Positions 1,011 to 37,237 of a DNA stretch of 64,000 nt are shown in pieces. The DNA is from Gammaproteobacteria bacterium. Its GTDB lineage: Bacteria; Pseudomonadota; Gammaproteobacteria; Ga0077536. Made by a program: the position numbers and the translations under genes. Location: assembly GCA_963662545.2 (NCBI GenBank), contig CAXXLL010000003.1:896001-960000 (forward strand). Direction: 5' to 3'. The notes below the pieces were generated by a model that had not been told where the DNA came from, did not search any database, and saw only the letters and a program-made list of their open reading frames with translations. The number at the start of each line of letters is the position of its first letter. The first letter of the stretch is position 1.

Positions 1011-1072
1011 AACGTCGCTTCCTGGCCGACCGCTATTGAGGGTACTGCAGACGTAATGCGTAGCAGTGCTGC
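1011..1072 (+). repeat. Array repeat copy 1 (truncated: half of A fused to B)
   Basis: GTCGCTTCCTGGCC joined to GACCGCTATTGAGGGTACTGCAGAC-GTAATGCGTAGCAGTGCTGC. Confidence 0.8.
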
Positions 1073-1296
1073 GCGGCGGCGACCGCGTCCCGAGCGTAGA
1101 CGTTGGCGATGCCGGTGCCGACCCGAATACGCGTGGTTCGCGCAAGCAGGTAGGCGCAGGCAGCGAACGGTTCGCGGCCGCCGACCTCCGGCACCCATAA
1201 AGTGTCGTAACCGAGACCTTCGACCCGGCGGCCGTAATCATCGAGTTCATCAACGGGCATCCCGTCGGTGAACAGCAACACACTGTGCTTCGGCAT
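1070..1296 (-). pseudogene. LLM-class (luciferase-like) oxidoreductase, 5' fragment
   Basis: GYDTLWVPE...TTRIRVGTGIANVYARD; reading runs into repeat copy 1 and stops. Confidence 0.8.
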
Positions 1297-1307
1297 GGCA
1301 TTTCTCC

Positions 1308-1856
1308 TCAGGCGTTGTTTCGGGCGGCGCGGTCAGCATCCGTGTTGATTGATTGGTTAGGCGTCTTCCCTAACTTTGCCATCTGTCCATCGACAACCAT
1401 TGCGAATTCGGGGGATACGTGTTCGATCAGGCTCTTCGCTCGGTGCCAGTCGTCAACCGCACTAGGGTTATTTTTGAAATAGCCGACAAGATAATCGACG
1501 TCTACTGACGTAGATTGTAAGGTCGCTGACGCGTGGCTACCCATGTACGCAAATGCGCAGGCGATATAAAGTTCTTCAAAGGCGGCGGAAATCTGGACCT
1601 TTTCGACCTCCGTAAGGGTTTCACCGGTATTTGCCTTGATAATGGCCTCAACTATCTCTGGACTGTTGATCAATATTCCGCGCCAGCGAGCATACGCTTC
1701 CGTTACGTAACCCGTCGCCTGCATCTGAGCGAATTTTGCACTCTGCTCTGCAGCTATGCGAGCTTGTCGAGTCTGAATCGCCAAATAGATAAGTGTGACG
1801 ATTATCGCCAACGCGCCGATAAATTCGGCGATTCCACTGATTGCGTCCCAGTTCAT
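1308..1856 (-). CDS. Hypothetical protein with N-terminal TM helix (MNWDAI...IQTRQ family)
   Basis: 182-aa ORF; similar N-terminus to 13309-13812. Confidence 0.75.
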   Translation of the reverse strand: MNWDAISGIAEFIGALAIIVTLIYLAIQTRQARIAAEQSAKFAQMQATGYVTEAYARWRGILINSPEIVEAIIKANTGETLTEVEKVQISAAFEELYIACAFAYMGSHASATLQSTSVDVDYLVGYFKNNPSAVDDWHRAKSLIEHVSPEFAMVVDGQMAKLGKTPNQSINTDADRAARNNA

Positions 1857-1920
1857 ATCGGCCGCCTCTAGAAAGTTCCGGAGATAATGGGCTTAGGACT
1901 GTTTAAAACACAACAAGCTG

Positions 1921-2064
1921 ACGTCCGATGTTGGCCGACAGCCCTCGTCGTCATGGTCGCGTGATCGAACGCTGTTGAAAGACCGCTTACGAGCGCATTG
2001 CAGACGTAACGTATAGCAGTGCTGCACTGCCGCGAGGAGGCCGCTGAAGACCCTAAGCAGTCAT
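1921..2064 (+). repeat. Array repeat copy 2 (intact A-B-C)
   Basis: A GTCCGAT-GTTGGCCGAC-AGCCCTC (1923), B GACCGCT-TACGAGCGCAT-TGCAGAC (1981), C GGCCGCT-GAAGACCCTA-AGCAGTC (2039). Confidence 0.9.
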
Positions 2065-2088
2065 CAGGGAGCGAAAATAAGTGCGTCC

Positions 2089-7770: not shown

Positions 7771-8079
7771 AATTCAGTACTCTTCCGCCTGAACCGCCGC
7801 CTGCCTTATCCGGCGGTCGTAGGCCGCTGTGTCGGTCCAGTACGCGATGAACAGCGTTCGTATACGATTGCGCATCAACGAAGACACCGCGATTCAACTC
7901 TACCGGGTCATCGTCCAGCGTGAACAGAGGGCGATAGGTCTCGAGCGCCGCCGCCGCTTGGTCCCCGTCCTGCGCCTACGCGCCAATCTGGGCGAATTGC
8001 ACCGCGGTAACACCGTGGGGCCAGTCGAGATTCCACAATTCGACTGCTTGATCGTGATCTGCATTGGGTTCCTGTGTCA
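7771..8079 (-). pseudogene. Possible aldoxime-dehydratase-like 5' fragment
   Basis: Internal stop and frameshift; pieces DDDPVELNRGVFVDAQSYTN / TLFIAYWTDTAAYDR resemble the Oxd N-terminal region from memory. Confidence 0.35.
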
Positions 8080-8263
8080 TGGTTATATCCTCGTCGACCT
8101 TAGCCACCAGTCGAGCGCCGCAACGCGGGGCAACCAATCGGAAGAAGATTATAGGGTGGTCTGACCCCATTTCCCGATCATAATTTCTCCGACACGCCGA
8201 CTGCAGCGTATACCAGCGCATCACTTGGCACAGAAATAGTTCGACGTTCGTCTGCTTTTGGCC

Positions 8264-8422
8264 GAGGCTGTGTCAAAAGTCGAAAAATGGAGCCCGCTGC
8301 GAAAATTTTCCCCACTTAGGTTGTTATGCACGATTGATTAAGGGAACACACCGCCTAAGGTAGGCAAATCGAGCTAAACTTCTCCCACTTTCAAAATTCA
8401 AAAATACTTTTGACACAGCCTC
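8264..8422. mobile_element. MITE-1 (159 bp, IS1182-type ends)
   Basis: TIR GAGGCTGTGTCAAAAG; GGCC TSD; second copy inverted at 17582-17740. Confidence 0.88.
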
Positions 8423-8543
8423 GGCCGTAAGCCGACCTGCTCCGCTAACCTTCCGCTAAACGCTACTCGACGACCGCTTACGAGCGGATTGCAGACGTAA
8501 TCCTTAGAAGTGCTGCACTGCCGCGAGGCGGCGGCTTCCGACC

Positions 8544-8703
8544 CAGAGTGTGTGAAAACTATTTTCATTTTTCAAAAGTGGGGGAACTACCCTCGAAATT
8601 GGATCTAATTGAAATGCCGATCCCTATTCGAGGGGCATAACAACTATGCTGGTGGGGAATATTTTTATTTCGTCGTCGTATTTTTGAGTTTTCACACAGT
8701 CTG
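8544..8703. mobile_element. MITE-2 (160 bp, ends shared with the resident IS1182)
   Basis: TIR CAGA(G/C)TGTGTGAAAACT; GACC TSD; second copy at 23293-23452. Confidence 0.9.
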
Positions 8704-9241
8704 GACCCAAAGGCGACATGCATCAGCAAGGTCAAGCGCTGTGTTGAACGAAAATAAACCTGGCCCCTTTCCCGTTCCGCGGTATCGCCCGGAAACGAGG
8801 TGAGAGGATATTTCCACATGCCCGGTGGCTAAAGCGGGCATCCAGTCTCGCCCGTCTATTGGGGTGGTCATGAAGCCTGGGCGAAAGGCAAACGGTTGCC
8901 CTTCCTGCCAGGCGAGGCCGTGTATGAGCTGGAGGCCAATCCGGCGTCCGAGCGGTGACTGGAAATGATGACCTGAATTAGGCGATCAAACTTTTCAACG
9001 ATCGAAAAATAAATTCGACTCAAAATCAACTAATGACCTTTTGTCACTACAAAATCACCGACCGTCAATAACTTGAACCTCGAACTGCTAGTGAAGACAT
9101 GAAGTTGTGACAATTATTTGCATCTGGAGAAGCTATATTGTTGATGGGTTCTGTGAATTTAGATGCAAGCTATCCTTGTGCAAACGGGCCGAGTACGGTA
9201 ACCGGCTGGAGAAGACCATGAGAACGTGTATCAAATGCAAA

Positions 9242-9916
9242 ATGATGGTCAACCGTGCGATCGCCGCCATGGCCGTTATAACTGTCGTATTGGCCTTACC
9301 ACAAGCCAACGCCGCAGACATTGGCGCTTTTGATTCTGGCTGGTACGACGACTTCAATGGCCAACACATCCCTACCAGCCAGAACTACGTTGCAAGCAAA
9401 AGCCTTGCCCAAGAATTGAGAAACTTCTTTGTATTCGATTTGTCCGCCGTGAGCGGAACAGTTACGGGTGCCACCTTGAATTTGCGACGCTACAACTCCA
9501 CTACTAGCAACGATACCTACTCGAGCTGGGACGTGACGACGCCTTTGGCGACCCTGCTTGCCGGCGGAACTGGCCTTTTCTCTATCTTCAACGACCTTGG
9601 CTCGGGCACCTTTTACGGGTCTTCTCCGGTGCCGAACACTGGAAGCAGCGGGGACATCCTCTCCTTTCCCTTGAATACCACCGCCGTGACGGCCATCAAC
9701 TCTGCACTGGGCGGCACTTTCGTGATCGGGGGCAGTACCACCGGCAACCTCCCCCTAACGCAGCTGTTTGGCGGCAGCAACTTTCCCGGACCCAATGAGC
9801 GGTTCCTTACCTTGACCGGAAGTGTCGTTGTTATTCCCGTTCCCTTGTCGCTGGTATTACTCGGCTCGGGGTTTGGTGGCCTTCTATTGGTCGGGCGAGG
9901 ACGTCGGAACAATTAA
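9242..9916 (+). CDS. Secreted VPLPA/PEP-CTERM sorting-domain protein (start uncertain)
   Basis: Signal peptide ending QANA; C-terminus IPVPLSLVLLGSGFGGLLLVGRGRR. Confidence 0.85.
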   Translation: MMVNRAIAAMAVITVVLALPQANAADIGAFDSGWYDDFNGQHIPTSQNYVASKSLAQELRNFFVFDLSAVSGTVTGATLNLRRYNSTTSNDTYSSWDVTTPLATLLAGGTGLFSIFNDLGSGTFYGSSPVPNTGSSGDILSFPLNTTAVTAINSALGGTFVIGGSTTGNLPLTQLFGGSNFPGPNERFLTLTGSVVVIPVPLSLVLLGSGFGGLLLVGRGRRNN

Positions 9917-10000
9917 TCGATAATCACTCTGGACCCTTAATCTGGAATCGGCTATTGGCGCCGTAGAGCTAAATAGAACAGGCAAAATGCTGGTGACAAG

Positions 10001-10026
10001 GAACCTGCTTCGGCGGGTTTCTTTTT
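10001..10026 (+). terminator. Rho-independent terminator
   Basis: GAACCTGC-TTCG-GCGGGTTT followed by CTTTTT. Confidence 0.65.
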
Positions 10027-10168
10027 GACATCGTCATTACCGCTATTGGCCGACTGCCGCCCCGCAACATGTTCACGCTACCAAACGCTACTGGACGACC
10101 GCTATGGAGGGTACTGCAGACGTAATCTAGGGCGGTGCTGCACTGCCGCGACAAGTCGGCTGACGACC

Positions 10169-11853
10169 CAGAGTGTGTGAAAACTCGGAATGAAGAGGAA
10201 TCACGTCGAGAACTCCTCGTCAGACGCAACGCGGCGCGGTTACGACGGCCGCGCTCGCGGTCCAATGCGATCGGTTAGTTAATGGAACATTCCTTAGAAC
10301 GGCCCCAGAAGCCGGCAGTGAAGCCGTGGATCAGGGAGTTTTCGAGGCCACAGAGGGTCTCATGCCGTCATCGCTTCGATGAGCGTAGCGACACCCAGTA
10401 GATTCATCACGCGTTTCATGTTGTAAGCGAGCACGTGCAGACTCATTTCCGTACCAACGTGTTTCAGCGTGCGCATCTGGAAGTGGGTCGAACCCATCCA
10501 GGATTTGATCGTGCCAAATGGATGCTCGACCGTCTCTCGGCGGACACGCATAGGGTCAGGTTCACGATCCAATCGCGCCTGCACCGCTTCAACAACCGCT
10601 TCATGTTCCCAACGGCTGACGCGCCGGTATCGACCCGTTGTGCATTTAGATTTGATCGGGCAGCGGGGACACGCCGAACTCCAGTAGCGCCGGATCTGCT
10701 TGCCTTTCTCCACTCGGGTGAACCGGTAAATCAGTCGCTCACCGGCCGGGCATTCATACGCATCCTCTTCGGGTTGGTAAATGAAGTCGCGCTTGCCAAA
10801 CAAGCCCTTCGCCTGGTTACCCGAGGTCTGCGGTTTCGGCAGATAGGTCGTGATGCCGGCTTTAGCGCACGCCAAGATCTCTTCGCCACTGAAGTACCCG
10901 CGATCCGCAACGACGGTCAACTCCTTCTTATCCAGCGCCTCTTTGGCTTTCTCCGACATGTTCGACAGTTGCGCCCGGTCATGACCTACGTTCGTCACTT
11001 CATGTGCCACAATCAGATGACTCTTCGTGTCGACCGCCGTCTGCACGTTGTACCCCACCATGCCGCTGCCACGGCCGCTCGTCGCCATCGAGCGCGCGTC
11101 CGGGTCCGTCAGTGAGACCTGATGGTCCGGCGTCTCCTCGAGCCGTACCTCGAGCTTTTTTAGGCGGCCTATCTCTTCCTTCAGTACCTCGATCTTGTCC
11201 TTCAAACGCTGCGACTTGTCACCTGACACCGCACGCTCCTGGCGGTCGGCACTTGCAATTTCCGCCAGGTACCGCTCAACGCTCTCGTCAATCTGCTGCA
11301 ACCGACGTTTCAGCTTCGCCTTCGTGAAGTTCCGGTCACGGTTGTTTACCGCTTTGAACTTGCTGCCATCTATCGCCACGAAGGCTTCCGAAAACAGCTG
11401 CAGCTTACGGCACAGCATCACGAACTCCCGGCATACCAGACGAATGGCGTCACCGTTATCTTTGCGGAAATCGGCAATGGTCTTGAAATCAGGCGCCAGA
11501 CGACCCGTCAGCCACATCAGTTCCACGTTCCGCTGCGCCTCCCGTTCCAGGCGACGGCTCGATTGAACCCGGTTCAGGTAACCGTAGATATAGAGCTTCA
11601 GCATCGTCGCCGGGTGATACCCCGGTCGACCCGTCTCATGCGCATCGGTTCTGAAACTCAGACCTGACAGATCCAACTCATCGACGAACACATCGATGAC
11701 CCGCACCGCACTCTCCTCAGCGACATAATCGTCCAGACACTCGGGAAACAGCGTTGTTTGGCGGCGGTCCGCGCCTTCAATGAACCCGCTCATCAACGAC
11801 TCCCCAGGACCGAAAGAGTGATCTTATCTGATGCAGAGTTTTCACACACTCTG
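10169..11853 (-). mobile_element. IS1182-family element copy 1 (1685 bp)
   Basis: TIR CAGAGTGTGTGAAAACT; TSD GACC. Confidence 0.95.
10360..11796 (-). CDS. IS1182-family transposase
   Basis: GRPGYHP, PDFKTIADFR, IDGSK, TDPDAR, GYNVQ, ADRGY, RRETVEHPFGTIK. Confidence 0.95.
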   Translation of the reverse strand: MMSGFIEGADRRQTTLFPECLDDYVAEESAVRVIDVFVDELDLSGLSFRTDAHETGRPGYHPATMLKLYIYGYLNRVQSSRRLEREAQRNVELMWLTGRLAPDFKTIADFRKDNGDAIRLVCREFVMLCRKLQLFSEAFVAIDGSKFKAVNNRDRNFTKAKLKRRLQQIDESVERYLAEIASADRQERAVSGDKSQRLKDKIEVLKEEIGRLKKLEVRLEETPDHQVSLTDPDARSMATSGRGSGMVGYNVQTAVDTKSHLIVAHEVTNVGHDRAQLSNMSEKAKEALDKKELTVVADRGYFSGEEILACAKAGITTYLPKPQTSGNQAKGLFGKRDFIYQPEEDAYECPAGERLIYRFTRVEKGKQIRRYWSSACPRCPIKSKCTTGRYRRVSRWEHEAVVEAVQARLDREPDPMRVRRETVEHPFGTIKSWMGSTHFQMRTLKHVGTEMSLHVLAYNMKRVMNLLGVATLIEAMTA

Positions 11854-11938
11854 GACCCACAGCGGACATGGCTATCGGAGCGGCAGTGAAGGGAATGCCA
11901 CTGTCAAGCGTCCGCCTCCAACGACCCGTTATGCTGCA

Positions 11939-12382
11939 TTATGAATGCACAGTGACCCCATTTCTGTTCATTACTTCTACGATCTTTTCTATGTTCGGCG
12001 GACCTGGCGGAACTTCATTGTCGAGCGCCGTGAACATTTGAGCAGCTATGCTCCCGGAGCCTGTTATTTCCAGCATTTCGCCGCCATCGGGGCCGTATTT
12101 GAACGCATGTATCGTTCCACCCGGCACAAAAACAAGTGTGCCTGGTGTGCACAGTTCGGTCCTTCCATCACAGGTGATTTCAACGCTTCCTTTAATCACG
12201 AAAAATGATTCATCCCAGTCGTGGCTATGAGGCGGAGGTCCCATGCCTTTGTCTCCGGACTGATACGTAAATTCCTGTCCCTGTGTTTCTTGTTTTGAAG
12301 CGAGCACGGTTACGTCAGTGCCTACGACGTTCAACGCGGATTTATAAGTCTCCGGTTTGATAATAAGCGGGGCTCTACTCAT
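11939..12382 (-). CDS. Cupin-domain protein (integron gene cassette)
   Basis: PPPHSHDWDESFFV, VPGGTIH; bounded by GTTATGC and GCATAAC. Confidence 0.85.
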   Translation of the reverse strand: MSRAPLIIKPETYKSALNVVGTDVTVLASKQETQGQEFTYQSGDKGMGPPPHSHDWDESFFVIKGSVEITCDGRTELCTPGTLVFVPGGTIHAFKYGPDGGEMLEITGSGSIAAQMFTALDNEVPPGPPNIEKIVEVMNRNGVTVHS

Positions 12383-24650: not shown

Positions 24651-24660
24651 GGGCCCGCCG

Positions 24661-26375: not shown

Positions 26376-26388
26376 CTCACCCGCCGGG

Positions 26389-27279
26389 TCAGGCGGGCGG
26401 TCTCAACTCCAGGGTGAGATGTTCCAGTGGGCTCACGACCTCACGAAGCGTGCGCGTGGCGACCTGGGAGTACAGCGCGGTGGTCTCGAGCTTCTGGTGT
26501 CCGAGCAGCACCTGGATCACACGGATGTCGACCCCCTGCTCAAGTAAATGAGTTGCGAATGAATGGCGCAGCGTATGCAGCGACACGCGCTTATCGATGG
26601 TCGCTAGGTCCACCGCCGCATGACAGGCCCGGTTGAGCTGGCGGGTGGTCAGAGGGTTGACGGGGTTCTGCCCCGGGAACAGCCAGCCGTGGGGCCACAT
26701 CTTGCCCTGCGATGCAGCGCTGCGGTACCAGGTGCGCAACACCTTGAGCAAGGTCGGTGAGAGCATAGCGTAGCGGTCCTTGCGTCCCTTACCCTGCTCG
26801 ACGCGCAGGAGCTTGCGCTCACGGTCAATATCGGTGACTTTCAGCATGACTCCCTCGCCGGCGCGAAGGCCGGCGCCATAGGCGAGCGACAACGCCGCCT
26901 GGTACTTGATGCCGGGCGCGGCTTGTAACAGGCGCGCAACTTCCTCACCGCTCAAGACCACCGGGAGCTTACGTTCCACGTGCACGGTACTCATCCGTTT
27001 CATCGCATCGGGCCGCTCGAGGGAGATCTCAAAGAAAAAGTGCAAACCGGTGATGGTGGCGTTGATGGTCGTGCGAGACACGCCGGTGGAGACCATGTGA
27101 AGTTGATAACGCCGCAGGTCTTCGCTACCGGCGGTGTCGGGAGAACGGGCGAGAAAGCGGGTGAAATTCTTGACCGCACGGATATAGGCTGTCTGTGTTT
27201 TCTCAGAGAGCTTACGAAGGCGCATGTCGTCGTGCATGCGTTGACGCAACGGGCTGATAGAATGCTTGTTCTGGGTCAT
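26389..27279 (-). CDS. Tyrosine recombinase with N-terminal SAM-like domain
   Basis: AGLR, KGRKDR, HTLRHSFATHLLE, LLGH, TTALY; no visible integron-integrase-specific insert. Confidence 0.93.
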   Translation of the reverse strand: MTQNKHSISPLRQRMHDDMRLRKLSEKTQTAYIRAVKNFTRFLARSPDTAGSEDLRRYQLHMVSTGVSRTTINATITGLHFFFEISLERPDAMKRMSTVHVERKLPVVLSGEEVARLLQAAPGIKYQAALSLAYGAGLRAGEGVMLKVTDIDRERKLLRVEQGKGRKDRYAMLSPTLLKVLRTWYRSAASQGKMWPHGWLFPGQNPVNPLTTRQLNRACHAAVDLATIDKRVSLHTLRHSFATHLLEQGVDIRVIQVLLGHQKLETTALYSQVATRTLREVVSPLEHLTLELRPPA

Positions 27280-27402
27280 GGGTCTGTTCCTTGTGTTGAG
27301 TTGCATGTCGCAAACCAACATCAACACGGGACAGACCCTTCCCGTCAATCCATCGCTAACGCCTGGTGAAACCTCCCCCTACCGCGCGAGCGGTTTAGTC
27401 CC

Positions 27403-27494
27403 TTGGCCGTAAGCCGTCATGGTCAAGTGTGGGATTCGCATCGTCGGTGATGGCTGCTTTCGGGTAAAGCGGACGTGGGCTATATCGACGCTTC
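27403..27494 (+). repeat. Array repeat copy 10 (two-subsite variant; left arm of A at 24805)
   Basis: TTGGCCGTAAGCCGTC, then GGCTGCT-TTCGGGTAA-AGCGGAC and tail GTGGGCTATATCGACGCTTC. Confidence 0.8.
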
Positions 27495-27935
27495 TTATTC
27501 CTCTTTCACACCCTCCGGCCATAGCGCCTTACCCAATATGGTCATCGTTACAGCATTCCCAATGAGAACAAACATGAACATTGTTGTCGATTCTAACGGC
27601 GCTGCTTCGGCTCCTCTCACACATATCCAGTAGCCGAGTGTTACTCCGTACAGGTTGCCGACACCTACGCAAACGCGTAGATAGGCTTTTTAGCGTTTGT
27701 CCATAACGGCCCCTTTTGGGAGAGACTATAGACACGGCTCAGATATGGGCGGCACGGTATTGGAGGACATGGCGGAGAAAGTTTAAGGGGATGGCCAAAA
27801 AAGGCTGTCACAGTGACAGGCTTTCCGAGTTTGGCATTTCGCATACCCAAGCCTCCCGCTGAATGCAAATAGCCAAGGTGCCGGAGAAGCCACAGCCAAA
27901 ACTGTGTAGTATTAATACACGATTCGGCATTAACT

Positions 27936-28265
27936 CTATCGCAGCGTTTGACGGTATATGTATAGCGGCCCCGAGCTTCTTATGAAGCCTATCCCGCATT
28001 CATAATCACCTTGGCGTAAGTTCGGATCTCCGTGCTTTGCCGCCCTCTGGTATACCCACTCCCGGCATTCCTCGAGGCTTCCTAAATCGGGCTGCCTTTC
28101 ATAATCGGTCAGGTTTGCGGCATCGGGATAGTAAGTCGCGTCAATGTCTTCCCACGGCGCTGCGGCTTCCGACCAGAACACATTGGCAATATCATTTCCG
28201 GGGCTTCCGAATAAGGCCCATCCCGCCACCCATCCCGCCAATACGGCAAGCACAATCCAGTGCAT
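27936..28265 (-). CDS. Hypothetical membrane-anchored protein
   Basis: N-terminal TM, YYPD, SLEECR, DYECG. Confidence 0.6.
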   Translation of the reverse strand: MHWIVLAVLAGWVAGWALFGSPGNDIANVFWSEAAAPWEDIDATYYPDAANLTDYERQPDLGSLEECREWVYQRAAKHGDPNLRQGDYECGIGFIRSSGPLYIYRQTLR

Positions 28266-28354
28266 TTAATCTTCCCGTCTGGACCGATTATAGGCCGCCA
28301 GTAAGCGCCGTCAGCGGTGAATTGCAAAGTCGGCATTGCACCGGGCGTCAGCAG

Positions 28355-28618
28355 TTACCGGCGCATACGTTCCGCACCAAACACCCGATTGTAGATTTCA
28401 CTTGTCGGCGCCCTCCGTGTCCCCGAGTTATAGTGACCGTGGCGGCTGTTGAGATATCCAACGTATGCGAGGCAGGCCAGCGATTCCAGGGCACACCGGG
28501 AGGCGTGTATACAGTCGTCGCAGGGTGCCGGCGGTACTTTCTTGATGGCGTAAGCGAGCGCCGGCAACAGATCGTCGTATGTTTCTACAGAAAGCTCGCC
28601 GTCGTCCATGTCGCGCAT
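28355..28618 (-). CDS. Hypothetical small Cys-rich protein
   Basis: PCDDC...C...C cluster; start uncertain. Confidence 0.4.
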   Translation of the reverse strand: MRDMDDGELSVETYDDLLPALAYAIKKVPPAPCDDCIHASRCALESLACLAYVGYLNSRHGHYNSGTRRAPTSEIYNRVFGAERMRR

Positions 28619-28786
28619 ATTACGCGCTTCTGATCTTGGGTAGCCGCCTGTAGTGCGTTCTAAGCGACGTTCTCTCCTCGTCCCATACCGTGGCATCCCC
28701 TCGTTCTGGCCCTGGGGGACACTGATGCTGATTGCGTTGCTGTGTCCCGGAGCCGGTGACCACAGCGCTGTGAAGCATTAGGCAGT

Positions 28787-28931
28787 ACGTCTCTTCTTTG
28801 CCGAAAGCCGAAGTCCTTCTTCAACACGATGCTGACGGCTACTCGACGATCGCTTACGAGAGCATTGCAAACGTAACGTTTAGCACTGCTGCACCGCGGC
28901 GAGGGGGCCGCTGCCGACCTACAGCGGACGT
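28787..28931 (+). repeat. Array repeat copy 11 (degenerate A-B-C)
   Basis: B 28848, C 28906. Confidence 0.85.
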
Positions 28932-29400
28932 CCCCAAGTTTGAATCGCTATTCCAACTCCTCCAACAACGCCTTCGCGTCTTGTAAATCTTTGGTGTCAA
29001 AACCTTCAGTGAACCAGTTGTAAATCTCGGAGAGTAACTGGTGAGCTTCGACTTGCTTGTCCTGCTGTTGCCACAGCCGGGCGAGGCTGGTGGCGGCGCT
29101 GACGTTGCCGTGGTGGTGGTTGCTCGAGCAGGGGCTCGCGGGCGAGCAGGTCGCCCATTTCCAACTGGCCGGCAGTCTGCTGGTTCCGGACTTCGATCAC
29201 CTGCTGAGCGTTAAGAATTGTAGAGTATCTTTCCGGACGGGTCTGAAGAAAAATTTACAGAAGCGACCCGCCGATTGTACGCAGGGCATGACACCGTGTC
29301 CTGATTTGATCAGCTCGATAGCGCCGGGGAGGCTAATATGAATCGTGGTATTGGGTACGCCTGCAATGAGCAAAGTCGCGACTGTTATGACACCGCTGGA

Positions 29401-30069
29401 ATGAGCAGGATTCGAATCTGGATCCTGTTCCTCGCTGCCAGTTGCTGCGTTTGTGCAGCGCCGGCCAGGGATGCACCCGCGCCGAGTGAACGCGAGCCGC
29501 GCAGTACGATCTATCTGGTGAACCACGGCTGGCACACCGGGATTGTGCTGCGGCGCGCCGACATCCCTGACAGTGTCTGGCCAGCACCTGGGGATTTTCC
29601 CGATGCACAATATCTGGAGGCAGGCTGGGGAGACATGGATTTCTACCAGACACCAGATCACCACATGGGGCTCATCCTCAAGGCGGCTCTGTTGCCTACC
29701 GCCAGCGTCCTGCACATTGTCGGTTTCAGTGGCCCTGTGCCAGCCTATTTTCCCTTTAGCGAGATCATTAGGATCGAGTTGTCCTCTGTCGGTTTTGAAC
29801 ATCTCTTACGGACTATTGCGGCAAGTTTCGCCAGGGACGCAGCCGGTAACGCCACGTCACTGGGTCCCGGCCTCTACGGAAACAGCCACTTCTACCTGTC
29901 CAGGGAGAACTATCATCTGTTCAACACATGCAACGTCTGGACCGCTCGGGCGCTGCGCGCCGCCGGTCTTCCTATCACGCCGGCACGTGCCATTACCGTG
30001 GAAAGTCTCATGTCCCAGGCGCGCAAGTTTGGAATGGTGGTGCAATCGGGGCCGGAACCCTCGGAGTGA
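29401..30069 (+). CDS. DUF2459-type protein
   Basis: NHGWHTGIV, GWGD, YHLFNTCNVWTA. Confidence 0.8.
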   Translation: MSRIRIWILFLAASCCVCAAPARDAPAPSEREPRSTIYLVNHGWHTGIVLRRADIPDSVWPAPGDFPDAQYLEAGWGDMDFYQTPDHHMGLILKAALLPTASVLHIVGFSGPVPAYFPFSEIIRIELSSVGFEHLLRTIAASFARDAAGNATSLGPGLYGNSHFYLSRENYHLFNTCNVWTARALRAAGLPITPARAITVESLMSQARKFGMVVQSGPEPSE

Positions 30070-30138
30070 CGCCTCAGGGGATTCATAACCGGCCGAACAT
30101 CAACATAAGGCCACAGGCCGCGGCCATTGGAGAAAGAT

Positions 30139-30466
30139 ATGAAACAGTTCAGGAAAATCCTGCTGGTACTGGCCCCCGGCAGCCAGGCTGGTACGCCTGC
30201 ACGGGGCCAACTTGCACGTGTTGACGGTACTCGAGGACCTGCTACTGGAGTTGAAAATACTCTTGTCCGCACCGCATCCCGAGGCTGTTGATCGGCAATA
30301 CGGCCGAGAGGATTCTCGATGGCGTCGAGTGCGATGTACTCGCCATAAAGCCCGAGGGATTCGTCACCCCGGTCACACTCACCAATTCGGAGGAGCGTCT
30401 GCGCCATGGGTAACGGCAGATTGGAATCGAGGATGGCCAACGGGTATTCCGTCAACCTTGCTTTGA
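30139..30466 (+). pseudogene. Universal stress protein (UspE-like) remnant with internal deletion
   Basis: MKQFRKILLV start and [31 protein letters not shown]-terminal motif. Confidence 0.7.
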
Positions 30467-30482
30467 CGAAGTACCAGACGGC

Positions 30483-31310
30483 ATGAAAAACCGAATGATC
30501 ATAAACATCCTGCTCCTGCTACTTGGGCTCGCCCTGTTGAATGGTTGTATGTATCTGCAACAACCCTCGATGATCTTTTTCCCTTACGCAACGTTTGGCC
30601 AAACACCGGCGGAGTGGGGATTTGCGTATGAGGATGTCTTGCTGGATACCGAGGATGGCGTGCGCTTGCATGGCTGGTACATCTCACGTCATGGATCGAA
30701 GCAGACCCTGCTCTTTTTTCACGGTAATGCGGGCAATATCTCCCATCGCGGGGCCTCCGTGGAGATCTTTCACCGGCTTGGCCTGAATGTTTTTATCTTC
30801 GACTACCGGGGTTACGGCAAGAGCCAGGGCAAACCTGATGAGAATGGACTTTATAAAGACGCCAGGGCGGCCTGGCGCTATCTGACCAATGAGCGAGGGT
30901 TCGATCAGAAAGATATCATCCTGTTCGGTCGCTCGCTTGGCGGCGCCGTGGCGGCAGAGCTGGCTGCGGAGATTCAGCCGGGAGGGCTAATCCTCGAGTC
31001 CACATTCAGCTCCGCTAGGGATGTGGCCAACGCGGTTTTTCCTGTTCTTTCCCGATTAATTTTTCTGCGTTACGATTTCAATACTGCGGCCCATGTCAGG
31101 CGAGTGGCGTGTCCGGTGCTGGTGCTGCACAGCCCCGACGATGAGATCATTCCGTTCCGTCTTGGAGAGAAGGTATTTCAGGCGGCCGATGAGCCAAAAT
31201 CCTTCGTGAAGATGAGGGGCGATCACAATAGCGGGGTTCTTATGAGCCAGCCGGACTACGAGCGGGCGCTTGGCGCGTTTGTCTCTCCTGCGAATAGAGG
31301 AAAGATCTGA
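30483..31310 (+). CDS. Alpha/beta hydrolase
   Basis: FHGNAGN, DYRGYG, GRSLGG, D and GDHN triad residues. Confidence 0.92.
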   Translation: MKNRMIINILLLLLGLALLNGCMYLQQPSMIFFPYATFGQTPAEWGFAYEDVLLDTEDGVRLHGWYISRHGSKQTLLFFHGNAGNISHRGASVEIFHRLGLNVFIFDYRGYGKSQGKPDENGLYKDARAAWRYLTNERGFDQKDIILFGRSLGGAVAAELAAEIQPGGLILESTFSSARDVANAVFPVLSRLIFLRYDFNTAAHVRRVACPVLVLHSPDDEIIPFRLGEKVFQAADEPKSFVKMRGDHNSGVLMSQPDYERALGAFVSPANRGKI

Positions 31311-31337
31311 CTCAGCAGCCATTCAATAACTTCGCAG

Positions 31338-31738
31338 ACGCCCAAAGACCGATGCCTTGATGCGCTCACCGGTAGAGCTGGCTACGGCCGCGCCGCCGTC
31401 GCCTTGGCGAACAAGAATGCGCGTACCGCTTGGGCGTTGCTCACACAAGGCACCGAGTACGACAAAACACTGAGTCGGAGTCTGCAACCTGCATAGTTGT
31501 TACGGCCCCCGTTCGTTCAAAATAAGGAGTTCAGCAAGCAGACCACCATCAGATTAAGAGATCTGCCCTGATCGAACCTGCTCTCCTTTGAGGCCATCGA
31601 GTCCATCGACCCATAGAGGAATCAGGGTGCGCATACATTGTGGGCTGGGAGATAGCGTCTCCATCAAAAAGCCGTATATACGTACGCGTCTTAAGTCTGA
31701 TATCAGCGCTGCTCGCTTAACGGGAGGAGTCCATATAC
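31338..31738 (+). mobile_element. IS110/IS1111-type remnant: transposase C-terminus plus right non-coding end
   Basis: AAVALANKNARTAWALL; ~240-nt non-coding region ending GGAGGAGTCCATATA. Confidence 0.75.
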
Positions 31739-31941
31739 ATAAGAGATATTCGGAGTAGTCATTCATTAGAGCCGATTATGGTTGCTACATAAGGAGTGAA
31801 TTAATGAACCATTGGCTAATCGCGTGTGTGCTGCTGTGCTCTTGGATCAGCGTCCCGGCTGAGGAAACGAACGAACCTGTGCTCGATGCACCCGAGAATG
31901 CCTACTGGCACGCCGGTTCGCAGTCGTGGTTCGTCTCCAGC

Positions 31942-32985
31942 CTAAATAGGTGATCCAAATCTTGCGACACTCGGGCAGTTTCCCGGGAATGGACTTGCCG
32001 CACGCATGAAGGCACGTACTGCGTCCATCAGACGGTCGATGGTCGAGTAACGATGATTCCGGGTGACATTGTCGTGCAACTGTTTCCAGAGTTTCTCAAT
32101 GTCATTGACCCAGGGCTGATAGGCCGGCTGGAACAGCAATCGGAATTTCGGATTGTGCTTTAGCCAGACGTGTGCCAAGCGACATTTGTGGATGATGTAG
32201 TTATCCACGATCAAGATAATTCGACGCGCGGCGCGGTAAGTTTGCCGCAGGTGGTCGAGCAGGCAAAGGAATAGGTCGCTGTTTTTCCGTGTGCCCTCGA
32301 CATACGCAACGCGACCGGTTCGTGCGTGCAGCGCGCCCGCCAGATAGCGTTTCCGGTTTTGCCCAGGCGTGGGGATGGCACGTTGACAACCTTGAGTAGA
32401 CCAAAGGAAACCGATTTTGGGATTGAGGTCGATATCGACCTCATCGGCGTAAAACACTTCATGCCCCGATGGGGCTCGAGACAACGCACGATGAATGGCT
32501 TTCAGGCGCGTGGCTGCCCGTGGGTCGCGCAGATGTAAGGTCGGACGAGCACGACGCCAGCCGAATCCCAAATTAACTAGCCAGCGACGTACCGTAGAGG
32601 CGTGAATGGGCCGTGACAGCAACGAATTCAGCGTCTCGGCCAGCATCTCGCTCGTCCACGTACTGCGCAGGTAGCCATAATCACTGGGCGGCTGCTCAAC
32701 TAACTCGGCGAGCGTCTCCAACAGGGTGTCATCCACCGTATACGCCCGCCGGCCCGAGCCGCACGCCTCGAGAAAGGCTTCACCCGCGGTCTGGAATTGC
32801 GTGACCCATCGATAAACCGTTGAACGCGCGACCGACAAACTGCGTGACACGGCCGTCGGTGAGACGCCTGAAACTAACTGCAACAGGACTTGAGCGCGGC
32901 GAACCACCCGCCCGTTATCGCTGCGTTGAATCAACCGCTTAAAGCGACGTTTCTGTGAGCGCGTCAATGACACTAAACTATCCAT
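31942..32985 (-). CDS. IS630-family transposase
   Basis: HTH, YADE, VDNY, NDIEKLW; stop codon supplied by the target site. Confidence 0.92.
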   Translation of the reverse strand: MDSLVSLTRSQKRRFKRLIQRSDNGRVVRRAQVLLQLVSGVSPTAVSRSLSVARSTVYRWVTQFQTAGEAFLEACGSGRRAYTVDDTLLETLAELVEQPPSDYGYLRSTWTSEMLAETLNSLLSRPIHASTVRRWLVNLGFGWRRARPTLHLRDPRAATRLKAIHRALSRAPSGHEVFYADEVDIDLNPKIGFLWSTQGCQRAIPTPGQNRKRYLAGALHARTGRVAYVEGTRKNSDLFLCLLDHLRQTYRAARRIILIVDNYIIHKCRLAHVWLKHNPKFRLLFQPAYQPWVNDIEKLWKQLHDNVTRNHRYSTIDRLMDAVRAFMRAASPFPGNCPSVARFGSPI

Positions 32986-33089
32986 ACTCAGGTGACCTCT
33001 TTCGGGAACGTAGATTGCTCGATACAACCTCTGATCTCTGAATGTCACCTGAGTTCTTTTTATTTGATCGAGTTTTTGGAACACCTATT
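31945..33089 (-). mobile_element. IS630-family element
   Basis: TIRs AATAGGTGATCCAAA / TTTGGAACACCTATT; TA duplication within CTAG. Confidence 0.93.
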
Positions 33090-33870
33090 TAGGCGGTGGC
33101 TTGTCGCTTGAGGTGGATGGTTATGGCTGGGTTTCCCGTTTCGATGCCGCAGGCAAAATCGTTGAACCGCGATGGGTTGAAAACCTCGATGCGCCAACTG
33201 GAATGGGGGCAATGGGCGACCGGCTCTACGTTGCCGACCGCGGACGCGTGCACGTCATCGACATCCCGTCGGCGCAAGTTGTCGCGACCATCCCGCTCCC
33301 CGGCGCGGAGTTTGTCAATGATGTCGCCGTGGGTCCTGATGGCGCAGTCTATGTTTCGGATACCGCGACCAACCGGATTTATCGCATCGTCAACGGCGCT
33401 GCGTCGATATGGCTCGAATCGGAAGAACTGCAGAGCCCGAATGGGTTATGGCTGGACGGTGACACCTTGGTGGTCGCCGCGTGGGGACCGATGACTGACA
33501 TCGAGACGTTCGCGACGAAGCATCTGGGCACGCTGTTGCGGGTGGATTTAGACTCGAAGGCCGTGCAGCCGGTCGGAGTGGGAGCGCCTATCGCCAATTT
33601 CGATGGCGTGGTCACGGTAGGCAATTATTACTACGCCACCGATTGGACAGGGGGACGCCTGCTACGAATCGACCGCGAGGGTCGCGTCACCGTCGTTATG
33701 TCAGGCTTCAATCAGCTTGCTGACCTTGGCTATGACCCCGTGCGGGGGATCCTCGGCCTGCCCGTTATGAGTGATAACCGCTTCATCCTGCTGTTCCTTG
33801 ATCGATGAGGGCAACGTCTGAAGAAGAGTCGGGACATTCGGAAACACGCAACGGTATTTTGAGTACTCAA

Positions 33871-34016
33871 ACGTTCGCTTTTTGGCCGACTGCTGTCGTC
33901 ATCAGCTAACACGTCAATGAACGCTACTCGACGACCGCTTACAAGCGCATTGCGGACGTAATCCTCACAAGTGCCGCACTGCCACTAGGGGGTCGCTGAC
34001 GACCCATTGCGGCCGT
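33871..34016 (+). repeat. Array repeat copy 12 (intact)
   Basis: A 33873, B 33933, C 33991. Confidence 0.9.
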
Positions 34017-34172
34017 CGTAACAGATTCGTAATTTTGGGAAGCCTGGCAACAAAACCATTTCAAGATAAGATGCCAAGCCTTGCGAGCGACGGTCGTGAA
34101 CACCTCACCATGACATTGGACTCGTCATCTCTCTTCTGAGAAGCTCCCATTACCGCCTCAGCAGGGAGTACG

Positions 34173-34607
34173 ATGATGACTGAGTTTGAAATGATGTATC
34201 TGCTTAATGACAGCATCAGACTCCTGGAATCCATAATGGAGACCTTTGTTGCATTGTTATTTGCTTTTGTTGTCGTCGCGTATATGGCGAGTGCCAAACT
34301 AACGCGCCTGATGGCCAGCTTCGCCGTTGTCGTGTTTTCTTTGATGGCGTTGCGCTACATTTCTGGATGGTACACCTACAGTGCGGATGTGGCGGCGCTG
34401 GGGGAACAAGTGTTCCAGGCCACATTGCAGCCGGGAACGGCACTCGCTCCTTTCTTTACGAAAATTAACTCGGAAGGACTCTCGTTATCTTTCAACGTGC
34501 AACTCGGCGGAATGATCCTGAGCTATATCGGGTCGCTCGTGTTCTTCTTCTACGCCCGGCATCATCCTCGAGAAATATCGGCACAAAGAGACAGCGTTCG
34601 AGTCTGA
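34173..34607 (+). CDS. Hypothetical membrane protein
   Basis: Three hydrophobic segments, GGAG RBS; single gene between repeats 12 and 13. Confidence 0.75.
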   Translation: MMTEFEMMYLLNDSIRLLESIMETFVALLFAFVVVAYMASAKLTRLMASFAVVVFSLMALRYISGWYTYSADVAALGEQVFQATLQPGTALAPFFTKINSEGLSLSFNVQLGGMILSYIGSLVFFFYARHHPREISAQRDSVRV

Positions 34608-34671
34608 TTAACGGGGAAGAAAGGTGACGCAGGGAATACCTTTTAATCCCTTCGTCACCTTTTACTTCCTG

Positions 34672-34760
34672 AACGACCGCTTTGAAGCGCATTGCAGACG
34701 TAATCTAGAGCAGTGCTGCAGTGCGGCGATTCGGCCGCTGACGACCCACTACGGACCGTC
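34672..34760 (+). repeat. Array repeat copy 13 (B-C only)
   Basis: B 34675, C 34733; A position occupied by hairpin AAAGGTGACG...CGTCACCTTT. Confidence 0.85.
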
Positions 34761-35025
34761 GCAGTGGCTAATATGCGTTCAGCTATGCTCAATTAATGGT
34801 CAATTTCCAGACCGCTATCCTATTTATAGAAATTGGCGGCGACCCATAATTGCTACTCACCGGATGTTTGACGTGAAGTTGGGGGCAAAGGGGCGTTAAT
34901 GCCGCCTATACTTTCCGTATAAATCGTATTTGGCTTTGCATTTATGGAAGGCGGTGGATACCAAACTGATTAAGTAAGCTATTTATATCGACGGTAAAAT
35001 AAGTCTCATCTGAGCCCATGTAAAC

Positions 35026-36468
35026 TTATGTATCGAATACTTCCAGATCAGCAAAAGTAATTTCCTCACCTTCTTCGTACATTAGGCCATCCCCGGCGAT
35101 AATGTGGGCGGCGCCTTTTAAGCATTCTAGTAAAGAGGGGTGTGGAAATATTGATTCCAGCAGGTAAGTATACGGCAACTCTCGCTCAATAATGATCGAG
35201 GCGGCACTGACAATACCGTCAGCTTCAGGGCCCACCACGCGCACACCGAGAATTCGGTCATCACCTTTGGGCCCAACAATCAACTTGACGAAACCGGCCG
35301 CCGGTTGAATGGCGTGGGCGCGATGATTGCGCGCATAGGGGTATTTACCTATCCGCACCTCGCCGTACTTTTCCCGGGCATAGGTCTCATTAACCCCAGC
35401 GCCTGCCAGCATGGGCACGGTAAAAATGATATAGGGGATGTGGTTCATGCTCTGTGGATAATCTTGGTTGAGGATATGTGCAGCTGCGCAACGCCCCTCA
35501 GCTTCGGCAACATGAACCAGTGCCAAGTCGCTAGGTATATTTCGATTGCCGATGTCGCCTACCGCATAGATGTGCGCTACCGAGGAGCGAGTATCCAGGC
35601 CCGTGGGTATATAGCCTCGCTGGTCCAATTCGACACCGCTAGCTTCAATATTCATGGTGCCCGAGCAGGGCATGCGGCCTATGGCTAGTAATACCGTTTC
35701 GGTTTCAATCTCACCGCTGGATAATGTGGTTTTTACGCTGGTGTCCAGCAGTTCCATGCTCTGATAGCGGCTGCAGGCTATCACCTTGATTCCGCGTTTT
35801 TCAAAAGCGTTAGCCACAAAGTGGCTGAGATCTGGGTCTTCATTTGCCATGATGACCTGCTGGGTATCGACCAGGTGAACCTGGGTGCCCACGGCGTTGA
35901 ACATACTGGCGAATTCACAACCGATGATGCCGGCTCCTAGAATCAGCATCGAGCTTGGTGTGGTGCTTAGCTGGTTAACCTCATCAGAGGTAAGTACGCG
36001 CCGGCCATCGATTTCCATGCCAGGCAGCACGCGGGGGCAGGTGCCGGTGGCGATGATAATGTTGTCAGCGCTGTAGCGGGTCCCATTGACTTCGACTGTA
36101 TGGGGGTCAATAAAGCGTCCGCGCCCCTTGATGACTTCAATGCCCAAGCGCTGCAAGCGCTTTTCAAGCATTTTGGTGAGGTTTGCCGCCGATTCGGCAA
36201 CCCCCTGTTGCAGTGTTTCGATTTTCAGTGGCTTGAGTTCGCCGAAGACGTGCTTGCGTAATCGAGTGTGCAAGTACTCACGGCTAATTTCAAAGCCTGC
36301 CTTGGAGCGAAAAGCTCCATCGATGCCGTAGCCCATCAGTGGGCCCTCATTAATGATGATGGCCTTCCTGCCGGCCAGTGCGAGCTTGCTTGCGGCGCTG
36401 ATTCCGCCGGGGCCGCCGCCTATTACTAGTACATCGCAATGAATTGCCGTCATGGTTTTTTGTTCCAT
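35026..36468 (-). CDS. Pyridine nucleotide-disulfide oxidoreductase (dihydrolipoamide DH / soluble transhydrogenase-like)
   Basis: GGGPGG, IATG, GAGIIGCE, AVGD, HPSLLE; no CxxxxC. Confidence 0.85.
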   Translation of the reverse strand: MEQKTMTAIHCDVLVIGGGPGGISAASKLALAGRKAIIINEGPLMGYGIDGAFRSKAGFEISREYLHTRLRKHVFGELKPLKIETLQQGVAESAANLTKMLEKRLQRLGIEVIKGRGRFIDPHTVEVNGTRYSADNIIIATGTCPRVLPGMEIDGRRVLTSDEVNQLSTTPSSMLILGAGIIGCEFASMFNAVGTQVHLVDTQQVIMANEDPDLSHFVANAFEKRGIKVIACSRYQSMELLDTSVKTTLSSGEIETETVLLAIGRMPCSGTMNIEASGVELDQRGYIPTGLDTRSSVAHIYAVGDIGNRNIPSDLALVHVAEAEGRCAAAHILNQDYPQSMNHIPYIIFTVPMLAGAGVNETYAREKYGEVRIGKYPYARNHRAHAIQPAAGFVKLIVGPKGDDRILGVRVVGPEADGIVSAASIIIERELPYTYLLESIFPHPSLLECLKGAAHIIAGDGLMYEEGEEITFADLEVFDT

Positions 36469-36478
36469 CTTGGCGGAA

Positions 36479-37112
36479 GAGAATAAGCCGAATAAACACC
36501 CTTTTCCGCAATTCCACCGAGTATCGTCAGGTCATCAAACCGTCGTCAACCTGCGATTCGACGCGGTGTTGGCCTGAATTGAGCCCCTGAGCCGGCAGTA
36601 ATTCTGTACATCAGGGCGATTTTTCGACGGTTCCGAGCGTCGGCACGACAGCGACTCTGCCGCGTCGCTGAGTGTCGCAGCCGCTGGTCTTACGCGCGTG
36701 GTTGCGCGTGTATCAGGCGAACCAGCGGGCCTGGGGCGGCGCCCGACACGGTGGCAAACGCGAGGCAGCTGTTGAAGTGTTTTTGCGGTCGAGGTGGGTG
36801 AGGATCTTCTCGATCACCACAGGGTCTTCGATGCAGGCGATGATCCTGACGTGGCCGCCGCAGCTCTTGCAGGTCTCGATGTCGATGTTGAAGACCCGCT
36901 TCAGGCGCTGTGCCCAGGTCGCCGCTCTTGCGCATCCCTGCGCCCGCGGCATTAGTGCATCCATGCACGTCATGGCGGCCCGGCGTTCGGCGGGCGTTAG
37001 GTCTTCAGTCGCCGCCGCGTTGGCTTTGTTGCCCTTGCCCCGTTTGGCCGGCGTCACCCGCGCACGATGCGCGCTGTTGGGGGCGAACACGCCGTGGAAG
37101 CGGGTGAGGTTG
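36479..37112 (-). mobile_element. ISCR/IS91-type remnant (transposase C-terminus and ori-like end)
   Basis: NLTRFHGVFAPNS, WAQRLKRVFNIDIETC, IEKILTHL; end GTGTTTATTCGGCTTATTCTC. Confidence 0.8.
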
Positions 37113-37135
37113 GCAGGTTTCTTTTTTGGCTCACC

Positions 37136-37237
37136 ATGTCCGCAGTTGGCCGTTAGCCGCCAGACGCAACCGAGGTAAACGCATCCTCAATCATGTCTGC
37201 TTACGCCCATAGCGGACGTGGGTTATATCGACGCTTC
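37136..37237 (+). repeat. Array repeat copy 14 (two-subsite variant, island right boundary)
   Basis: GTCCGCA-GTTGGCCGTT-AGCCGCC, GTCTGCT-TACGCCCAT-AGCGGAC, tail GTGGGTTATATCGACGCTTC. Confidence 0.8.

Follow-up and report, generated by a model that had tools for sequence, protein, structure and literature searches.

The stretch of DNA analyzed here is 64,000 nt long and covers positions 896001-960000 of contig C3 in a gammaproteobacterial genome (G000:C3:896001-960000; G000 is the genome under study). We call this whole stretch the window, and positions given without a contig name refer to it. The window carries an array of gene modules separated by a tripartite repeat of ~145 nt, called R below. 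Using repeat finding, alignment and an nhmmer profile built from ten window copies, we located 14 R elements spanning 1021-37266, all on the + strand, with profile E-values of 1e-10 to 1e-37. Ten of these are full copies with subsites A, B and C, one has B and C only, one is a fragment and two are end variants. The profile found no copy in the core region (37267-64000), in agreement with a preliminary description of this DNA that had reported 14 co-oriented copies and none in a 27-kb core. The modules hold one to several unrelated genes on either strand, as that description had also stated, and secondary insertion of insertion sequences (ISs) accounts for much of their length. The array begins 9 kb before the window, where five further R copies lie at C3:887210-892709; upstream of these are a tRNA-Met gene, a gene for a 422-amino-acid (aa) P4-like integrase and an IS. 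At the 3′ end of the array a variant R copy adjoins the core-genome boundary (37354-41069, − strand, Pfam), made up of a deaminase gene (37354-37809), guaA (37810-39447) and guaB (39606-41069).

Every R subsite follows the imperfect palindromic pattern G.CCGCT - 10 or 11 nt - AGCGGAC, with a loop core that is conserved yet specific to the subsite: nTTGGCCGAg in A, TACGAGCGCAT in B and GACGACCCAn in C. A and C are imperfect inverted copies of one another. The B-to-C spacing, found as an ungapped 74-nt repeat family and then re-measured, is 58 nt in 11/11 window copies having both subsites. The A core TTGGCCG sits 50-51 nt 5′ of B in 10/10 copies and the A left arm therefore lies 58-60 nt before B, so that both spacings first reported (58 bp from B to C and 58-60 bp from A to B) agree with ours. 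The palindrome GCAGTGC-T-GCACTGC, earlier noticed in the B-C linker, is real and nearly invariant; we refer to it as the mini-hairpin. The C right arm (consensus AGCGGAC) lies beyond an IS or a miniature inverted-repeat transposable element (MITE) in 5/11 window copies, as these elements sit exactly at the C centre (GACC, duplicated) and displace the arm by 0.16-1.7 kb. We rejected a coding reading of R because the conservation table, judged by eye, has no 3-base periodicity. Partial-tRNA att repeats of the tycheposon type were likewise rejected: the sequence of tRNA-Met does not resemble R, and a search of the window for its 3′ end, allowing up to 3 mismatches, found no repeat of it.

Along the window, the first R element is a fragment with only the B site and mini-hairpin (1021-1082; nhmmer model positions 59-120, and alignment), followed by a full copy with an intact C right arm (1922-2063; A core TTGGCCG at 1931, B at 1981, C at 2039). 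A ~160-bp MITE (about 8544-8703) occupies the C centre of the copy at 8413-8545 (A core 8421, B 8472, C left arm 8530), and another (about 23293-23452) that of the copy at 23162-23294 (A core 23170, B 23221, C 23279). The copy at 10038-10170 (A core 10046, B 10097, C 10155) has an IS at its C centre, and those at 13866-13998 (A core 13874, B 13925, C 13983) and 20377-20509 (A core 20385, B 20436, C 20494) are followed by an IS1182-like copy. Further full copies lie at 13089-13230 (A core 13097, B 13148, C 13206), 17731-17872 (A core 17739, B 17790, C 17848), 28789-28930 (A core 28797, B 28848, C 28906, right arm AGCGGAC) and 33874-34015 (A core 33882, B 33933, C 33991); the element with B and C only is at 34669-34757. 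The end variant E1 at 27403-27528 consists of the A right half, the linker, a B″ site (GGCTGCT-TTCGGGTAA-AGCGGAC) and a unique tail, without a C site, and a terminal E1 at 37146-37266 is the last element of the array.

We observe 120 R copies in the 5.58-Mb G000 genome with the nhmmer profile. A neighbour within 15 kb was found for 112 of the 120, the other 8 being solo, and 98 of 100 adjacent pairs are co-oriented; the profile scan for clustering that had been suggested earlier thus revealed clustered rather than randomly scattered copies. The largest run has 33/33 copies on one strand over 93 kb. Spacing ranges from 210 to 13340 bp (median 2253), with genes between the copies, which are 60-80% identical. 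Altogether G000 contains about 15 R arrays, besides a textbook integron with about 60 attC sites. One R array is flanked by a 6-kb inverted duplication (C3:1-5976 versus C3:20980-26954, 99.98% identical) with a tRNA-Ser gene at each inner edge, and contig C2 ends in a segment (2586676-2591134) identical to C3:8971-13429; both may reflect assembly joins through repeats rather than biology.

The arrays have a start and an end. Six arrays open at their 5′ end with a start element S of 172 nt, in which 110 unique nt precede a B-like site, the mini-hairpin and a C-like site. In nine arrays the 3′ end is marked by an end element, E1, whose A right half and linker precede a B-like site and a unique tail. 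Both window variants are among these, and E1 is always co-oriented with R. An open reading frame (ORF) of ~207-212 aa with an internal ~45-aa repeated motif reads towards E1 in two arrays (C3:385357 and C2:606758). S also bounds, together with a second end type, E2, an element whose terminal inverted repeats are ~30 bp long; S contains a B′-hairpin′-C′ half and E2 an A-linker-B half, and S has a B-to-C spacing of 47 nt, versus 58 nt in R, and its own conserved sequence. The smallest S/E2 elements (1.27 kb and 1.9 kb) hold one cassette, and larger ones, up to 33 kb, have R between cassettes. Target duplications of 7 bp were matched in 4/6 pairs of ends (7/7, 7/7, 6/7 and 6/7). The terminal repeat has 19 matches in G000, only one of them inside a long array, and both S and this repeat are missing from the window array. 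No transposase for the S/E2 element was found among its internal ORFs with Pfam, and a TniB search gave two weak matches elsewhere; the genome also has many rve genes. The S/E2 elements of G000 (C2:1216914-1218185, C3:1277630-1279554, C2:246920-251598, C3:2018068-2027155, C2:1108714-1116179 and C2:1609074-1642329) are non-autonomous, with TGT-type ends, two direct subterminal repeats at the right end and 1 to >9 cassettes.

R-bounded modules are shared between arrays. At least seven window modules have copies in other arrays at 91-99.8% identity. Two modules ordered X,Y in G000 are ordered Y,X in the sister species G002, and cassettes of G002 and of a further sister species, G001, 88-97% identical, occupy different arrays in G000. 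We defined a breakpoint as the point in the repeat where identity ends and read it where only one flank is common. In ten pairs with only the upstream module in common, identity breaks right after TTGGCCG in the A loop in six, just after B in two and just before C in two; in one pair with only the downstream module in common, the break is before C. Since the A core has only 7-12 conserved bases and the invariant B-to-C stretch 20-30, homologous recombination should not prefer A. Within the window, the module upstream of the copy at 17731-17872 is common to two other arrays, with breakpoints at the A centre and just after B, respectively. The module at 33090-33894 matches C2:75269-76160 at 96.8% identity, ending inside the A site, and that from the 34669-34757 copy to 37152 matches C2:1113587-1116046 at 99.6% identity, which stops at the terminal E1 right after TTGGCCG (37152). 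The idea of cassette-like arrays in the preliminary description has thus held: the arrays have polarity, modules turn out to be common, rearranged or missing when arrays, species or samples are compared, and breakpoints fall inside the repeat.

Contigs from four other public runs, compared at 90% likeness, depart from the window sequence at A centres (27416 and 37152) and at C centres (20509 and 28919). One such contig joins a hydrolase module straight to an R (31380>33918), skipping the next module. Contigs of two of the runs lack an IS630 copy (joint 31942>33090), whose transposase gene lies at 31942-33084 on the − strand (Pfam DDE_3). Among runs sharing words with window 27350-37300, 13 runs from four host organisms hold at least half of the words, and sponge metagenome and marine sediment metagenome runs hold 40-50%.

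R is also a target for mobile elements, with three or more IS or MITE families inserting at fixed points. Of the 95 R copies that reach the C centre, 31 are followed there by an IS1182-like element or its MITE and 5 by a second IS. The window example is an IS1182/IS5-like IS at 10169-11853 (− strand; Pfam DUF772, DDE_Tnp_1 and DDE_Tnp_1_6, and inverted repeats) encoding a 478-aa DDE transposase (10360-11796). It is inserted in the C centre GACC, which is duplicated, and identical copies lie at about 13997-15681 and 20508-22192. An IS91-family element at 24803-27401 (− strand; Pfam Y2_Tnp, Zn_Tnp_IS91 and Phage_integrase) encodes a Y2 transposase (25182-26375) and a tyrosine recombinase (26389-27348), and ends directly against the CTTG in the A loop of the R element that follows, as is the case for 6/6 copies of this family in the genome. 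A 1.16-kb IS lies between B and the hairpin in both G000 and G001. The IS1111 family is known to target attC. More generally, IS elements likewise target attC and pdif sites, according to the accessible part of PMC10132070.

The textbook integron allows R to be compared with attC in the same genome. G000 has two IntI genes (C2:996723-997664 and C3:1527239-1528180), both above the NCBIfam cut-off and 56% identical to each other. In the chromosomal integron (C2:982347-997664), the region upstream of intI carries ~115-nt attC sites, at least 10 in number, in an array interrupted by rve IS insertions; the second intI has a single attC nearby (C3:1524817-1524931), and repeats of ~170 bp lie near it at C3:1497533, 1546120, 1555005 and 1567747. 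The attC sites of G000 carry CCTAAC...GTTAGG and fold at -67.5 kcal/mol over 10 sites (RNAalifold). A profile of these 10 sites found 64 loci in G000, 43 at ≥60 bits and one cluster of ~28 sites, and none of the 64 is an R copy. None of the 120 R copies lies within 50 kb of an intI gene, and 5 of the 64 attC loci are within 5 kb of an R copy. One of these is a short canonical attC (ATAACG...GTTAGG) at 12420-12476 on the + strand, between two small genes within an R-bounded module (profile match 12438-12476, and sequence inspection); a canonical attC inside such a module means that both kinds of site coexist and are distinct. In the accessible text of PMC8876359, attC has a 7-bp core GTTRRRY with inverse RYYYAAC, and the IntI crossover falls between G and TT. 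R has no GTTRRRY/RYYYAAC core; its outer boxes are GTCCGCT/AGCGGAC, with no conserved AAC or GTT at either end. Other attC clusters, resembling clusters of attC sites lacking integron-integrases (CALINs), lie far from intI at C3:1917897-1949543 (~28 sites), C2:433038, C2:1163239, C2:1371997, C2:2113064 and C3:1722075. Within these attC arrays we found seven copies, all with the same score, of a 399-aa rve-type transposase, which suggests an IS targeting attC.

Sites of this kind extend well beyond G000. A model from the window sequence found R in two other species of the genus, G001 (25 matches and an S element) and G002 (7 matches), and in 0 of 22 other genomes of the family. Other full copies were found in records titled Gammaproteobacteria or Pseudomonadota metagenome-assembled genomes (MAGs) and on two short contigs binned otherwise. 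In G038, from another family, perfect GTCCGCT-N8-12-AGCGGAC palindromes occur 33 times, their loop cores being of the same A, B and C types and of a fourth type. With a pattern of 22 specified bases, the A-type site alone was found in at least 120 metagenome contigs and more. Among the 80 metagenome loci listed, units have 2, 3 or 4 palindromes and are about 57, 82, 107, 127 or 187 nt long, mostly co-oriented and 0.5-3 kb apart, so the three-subsite design first proposed is not general. Only four of 401 sampled genomes of the class carry such sites, which fits mobile DNA. The S/E2 terminal repeat is absent from all 80 listed metagenome loci and from the R-like loci of G038, and R-like units thus exist without the transposon. 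A plasmid database gave no match for S and one 30-base match at chance level for R. Neither Rfam, with 0 matches at gathering thresholds and 0 at E≤1 for R, S and E, nor the literature searched, supplementary files lying outside that search, held a description of R, and a motif query returned unrelated papers. The preliminary statement that R is not a clustered regularly interspaced short palindromic repeat (CRISPR) was borne out, and the Rfam check proposed there matched R to no family.

Relatives of R fold as long hairpins. In 6/6 tested units the fold has a z-score of -4.2 to -8.8, and 0/200 shuffles were as good. Five of the six share one structure, in which A-left is paired with C-right (TTGG against CCAA, CG against CG) with unpaired bases at fixed places, followed by an A-right:C-left helix and a middle that varies; the exception, L082, has A paired with an internal palindrome instead. 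Of 26 relative units, 14 adopt the long A-left:C-right form as their minimum-free-energy structure and 4 a local A hairpin. In relatives the inner helix extends in a cognate-specific way (1.46 versus 0.80 pairs, above all 300 permutations), and the local A stem is also cognate-specific (1.31 versus 0.88), so that the permutation test fits local hairpins as well. The A loop is partly complementary to the C loop, in the G000 consensus as well, which is the pairing that marks an attC-type site. In this consensus, single positions of the inner box pair at 0.38-0.98 and those of the loops at 0.67-0.96 in the A-left:C-right and A-right:C-left arrangement, and the bulges (C versus AC, AA versus AA) are conserved between G000 and metagenome units.

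With moderate confidence, we propose that R is the recombination site of a cassette system that works independently of IntI, with an attC-like architecture and the main crossover in the A loop; our searches, described below, did not identify the enzyme. R would delimit mobile gene modules in an integron-like manner, with IntI not needed. The site is made of the palindromic simple sites A and C around a variable middle, to which the genus of G000 adds B and the mini-hairpin. Most exchange would take place in the A loop, within TTGGCC(G), and a smaller part beside B or C, so that a module would travel with the adjacent R. Repeated directional insertion would then yield co-oriented arrays with a start S and ends E1 and E2. 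Some arrays of the genus ride in transposon-like elements with terminal inverted repeats, and others, that of the window included, in a tRNA-linked island. What the sequences establish is the build of R, the polarity of the arrays, the sharing of modules and where their breakpoints fall, the independence of R from attC and IntI, and the broad occurrence of the family. The position of the breakpoints suggests that they are made by a site-specific recombinase, which would act in trans and for which a folded single strand may be the substrate. More tentatively, R-like units may represent a second, IntI-free system of gene capture, with folded bipartite sites (GTCCGCT/AGCGGAC boxes, TTGGCCG and ACGACCC spacers), a trans-acting enzyme possibly supplied by the host, and directional multi-gene arrays, which would coexist with the canonical integron and in this genus have been picked up by a transposon.

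Several observations weigh against this proposal, and many of them concern the enzyme. We found no recombinase that co-occurs consistently with R, having examined IntI, resolvase, IS91 and RAYT-type transposase (RAYT, REP-associated tyrosine transposase; REP, repetitive extragenic palindrome), so that the check proposed in the preliminary description came out negative; several genomes searched are incomplete MAGs, in which absence of a recombinase is not proven. IntI is absent from G001, G038, G173 and G404, and G002 has only two PF00589 tyrosine-recombinase matches. The serine recombinase family PF00239 is represented by one 113-aa fragment with a TAA stop in G000 and is not found in G001 or G002, which leaves the earlier analogy with res sites unsupported. 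The IS91-linked tyrosine recombinase was rejected as the array enzyme: close homologues occur in G012, G013 and G023, which lack R, and none was found in the R-bearing sister species G001 and G002, where Y2 transposases are present as fragments only. No protein family recurs beside the 80 listed metagenome loci, at most 3 of which share one. The ORFs up to 6 kb upstream of 20 array starts have in common only ISs, a P4-like integrase (2 arrays) and a ~196-aa recombinase (2 arrays), and no conserved large ORF follows E1. Palindromes flank 0/8 examined Y1 (RAYT-type) transposase loci of G000, G001 and G002. Host dif sites consist of an XerC arm, a centre of 6-8 bp and an XerD arm. The dif-like site of G000, at C2:2180004, has 2 mismatches to the dif consensus, and the A, B and C subsites share neither of its arms.

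The fold of R in G000 itself is also unfavourable to the proposal. The consensus of 64 copies folds at -1.3 kcal/mol (RNAalifold), with no structure on either strand except the mini-hairpin. Eight folds of single copies gave z-scores from +0.9 to -3.2, mostly no better than shuffles, compared with -7.8 and -10.1 for single attC sites of G000. No covariation was found in any proposed helix of R in G000, and pairing equals the expectation from column composition. The earlier suggestion of single-stranded hairpin substrates is therefore plausible for the family, whose relatives fold, and in G000 neither covariation nor a stable fold bears it out. Breakpoints fall at more than one position (6 at A, 2 at B and 3 near C), and neither an excised circle nor recombination activity was seen. 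The joints in contigs of other runs, at their 90% likeness, possibly come from other organisms or from repeats and are therefore supporting evidence, not decisive. Finally, modules with several genes on both strands are unlike integron cassettes.

Other explanations must account for the same observations. R could be a selfish MITE or a palindrome of the REP type, including bacterial interspersed mosaic elements (BIMEs), that offers portable homology and a target for ISs, with arrays arising by accretion and homologous recombination. This is rather unlikely in our judgment, even though the imperfect inverted repeats at the A and C ends and the MITE-like long hairpins of relatives would fit it, as would the failure to find a dedicated recombinase, the several breakpoint positions and the 8/120 solo copies with no neighbour within 15 kb. 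Copies of MITEs, which have target duplications, and of REPs, which flank a RAYT gene, are spread over intergenic DNA in either orientation, whereas R is co-oriented in 98/100 adjacent copies and clustered in 112/120. Breakpoints lie mostly inside the A loop, neither at the outer ends of the unit nor in its longest conserved stretch, start and end elements give the arrays polarity, and none of the 8 Y1 loci is flanked by palindromes. Alternatively, R could be a divergent attC, and the arrays CALINs made and served in trans by the two IntI proteins of the genome, both above the NCBIfam cut-off. The box pairs, spacers and variable middle of R match the ground plan of attC (two box pairs, two spacers and a variable middle) as defined in the accessible part of PMC8352920, and canonical attC sites lie inside or beside R arrays (5/64 loci within 5 kb). 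We nevertheless hold this to be improbable: the GTTRRRY/RYYYAAC motif where IntI cuts, on the available text of PMC8876359, is not in R, none of the 120 copies is within 50 kb of intI, the genome's own attC profile finds 64 loci and no R, the fold is weak (-1.3 versus -67 kcal/mol), and G001 (25 copies and S), G038, G173 and G404 have no IntI. The earlier label "not attC" thus stands as regards core motif, IntI linkage and weak fold, and needs qualifying as regards architecture, which is attC-like, with relatives folding as one bulged hairpin.

A transposon origin would explain part of the pattern. Adjacent single-cassette transposons could have undergone deletion between the B-like sites of E2 and S, leaving an R-like fusion without present function; S and E2 are indeed ends with ~30-bp terminal repeats and 7-bp duplications in 4/6 pairs, minimal elements hold one cassette, and an S half and an E2 half together resemble one R. 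R-like units were found without the terminal repeat at the 80 listed metagenome loci and in G038, however, and, as seen in part, R-like arrays without terminal repeats occur in unrelated genomes. Only 1/19 terminal-repeat matches is inside a long array, the window array lacks both S and the repeat, and the 47-nt spacing and own sequence of S mean that R is not a simple S and E2 hybrid, so we consider this origin highly improbable. Least credible of all is a role as a cis-regulatory or RNA element, such as a multi-hairpin that binds protein or stabilises transcripts and accompanies horizontally acquired genes. Conservation of stems and loops in distant taxa would suit such a role, and three metatranscriptome runs hold 0.06-0.10 of the words of window 27350-37300, from which no expression is claimed. 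Against it, Rfam gave no match even at E≤1, window 8000-24000 has 5 promoter-like and 29 terminator-like consensus sites, all of them outside R, and genes flank R on both strands, leaving it without a fixed position in a transcript; breakpoints and polarity would also go unexplained.

R shares features with several known systems and differs from each of them in others. Like integrons and CALINs, R arrays are co-oriented series of unrelated modules split by an imperfect palindrome of 60-150 nt, the bipartite site combines an outer and an inner pair of boxes with two spacers containing unpaired bases and with a middle that varies, and the site sequence is species-specific, is targeted by ISs and comes with a distinct array-start element. 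R differs in lacking the GTTRRRY core, in its GTCCGCT/AGCGGAC boxes and 10-nt spacers, in having no linkage or co-occurrence with IntI, and in its main breakpoint in the 5′ simple site A (+ strand reading); its modules have 1-5 genes on either strand, and the extra B palindrome and mini-hairpin go with a weak fold here. In the pdif modules of Acinetobacter plasmids, which use host XerC/XerD, accessory modules are also bounded by short sites with no element-encoded recombinase, and the source text, as far as available, gives inter-replicon module shuffling and site-specific ISs beside the sites. R subsites are unlike the dif-like site of this genome, and R is composite, with 2-4 palindromes over 60-190 nt, and co-oriented, in chromosomal arrays reaching 33 units or more. 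By comparison, pdif sites are single 28-bp sites in alternating orientation. Tn3-family res sites have a similar size (about 120-145 bp), three imperfect palindromic subsites at fixed spacing and crossover at one outer subsite, whereas R has many copies per replicon, relatives with 2 or 4 subsites and different conserved loop cores in its subsites, and no intact serine recombinase was found in G000, G001 or G002. As in Tn402-type transposons carrying class 1 integrons, cassette arrays of the genus lie within TGT-type terminal inverted repeats with a short target duplication, but this duplication is 7 bp, no transposition genes or integrase were found inside, and the ends contain half-R units. 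MITEs, REPs and BIMEs (ERIC, Correia, REPIN) are likewise short, non-coding, intergenic, genus-specific and hairpin-folding palindromes that ISs target; R differs in its strict co-orientation, clustering, start/end polarity, breakpoints inside the unit and lack of a RAYT link. CRISPR arrays, in which brief identical repeats alternate with brief unique spacers, are unlike R, with its ~145 nt, copies that are 60-80% identical and gene-containing spacing of 210-13340 bp.

Two further repeats were noticed in the window. The core region has a MITE-like element of ~173 bp, unrelated to R, at 39439-39609, 43531-43703 and 57089-57261, bounded by terminal inverted repeats of ~27 bp (CTTAGGGAACCTCTGAATAAGTCATGG). 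At 24291-24484, two tandem copies of a 99-bp repeat, 85% identical, fall inside a His/Asp-rich ORF (23931-24650), and the single cassette of the minimal transposon C3:1277630-1279554 is a similar H/D-rich ORF.

Integrons, defined by IntI and attC, are the only well-understood case in which promoterless genes are stacked in directional arrays. The G000 genome holds a textbook integron and R arrays together, which allows the two to be compared within one cell. The family is easily located by a 22-base pattern, and its enzyme is therefore open to phylogenetic profiling. If the R site is active, cassette capture would have evolved or diversified beyond IntI, and part of the flexible genome in environmental and symbiotic bacteria would escape tools restricted to attC and intI.

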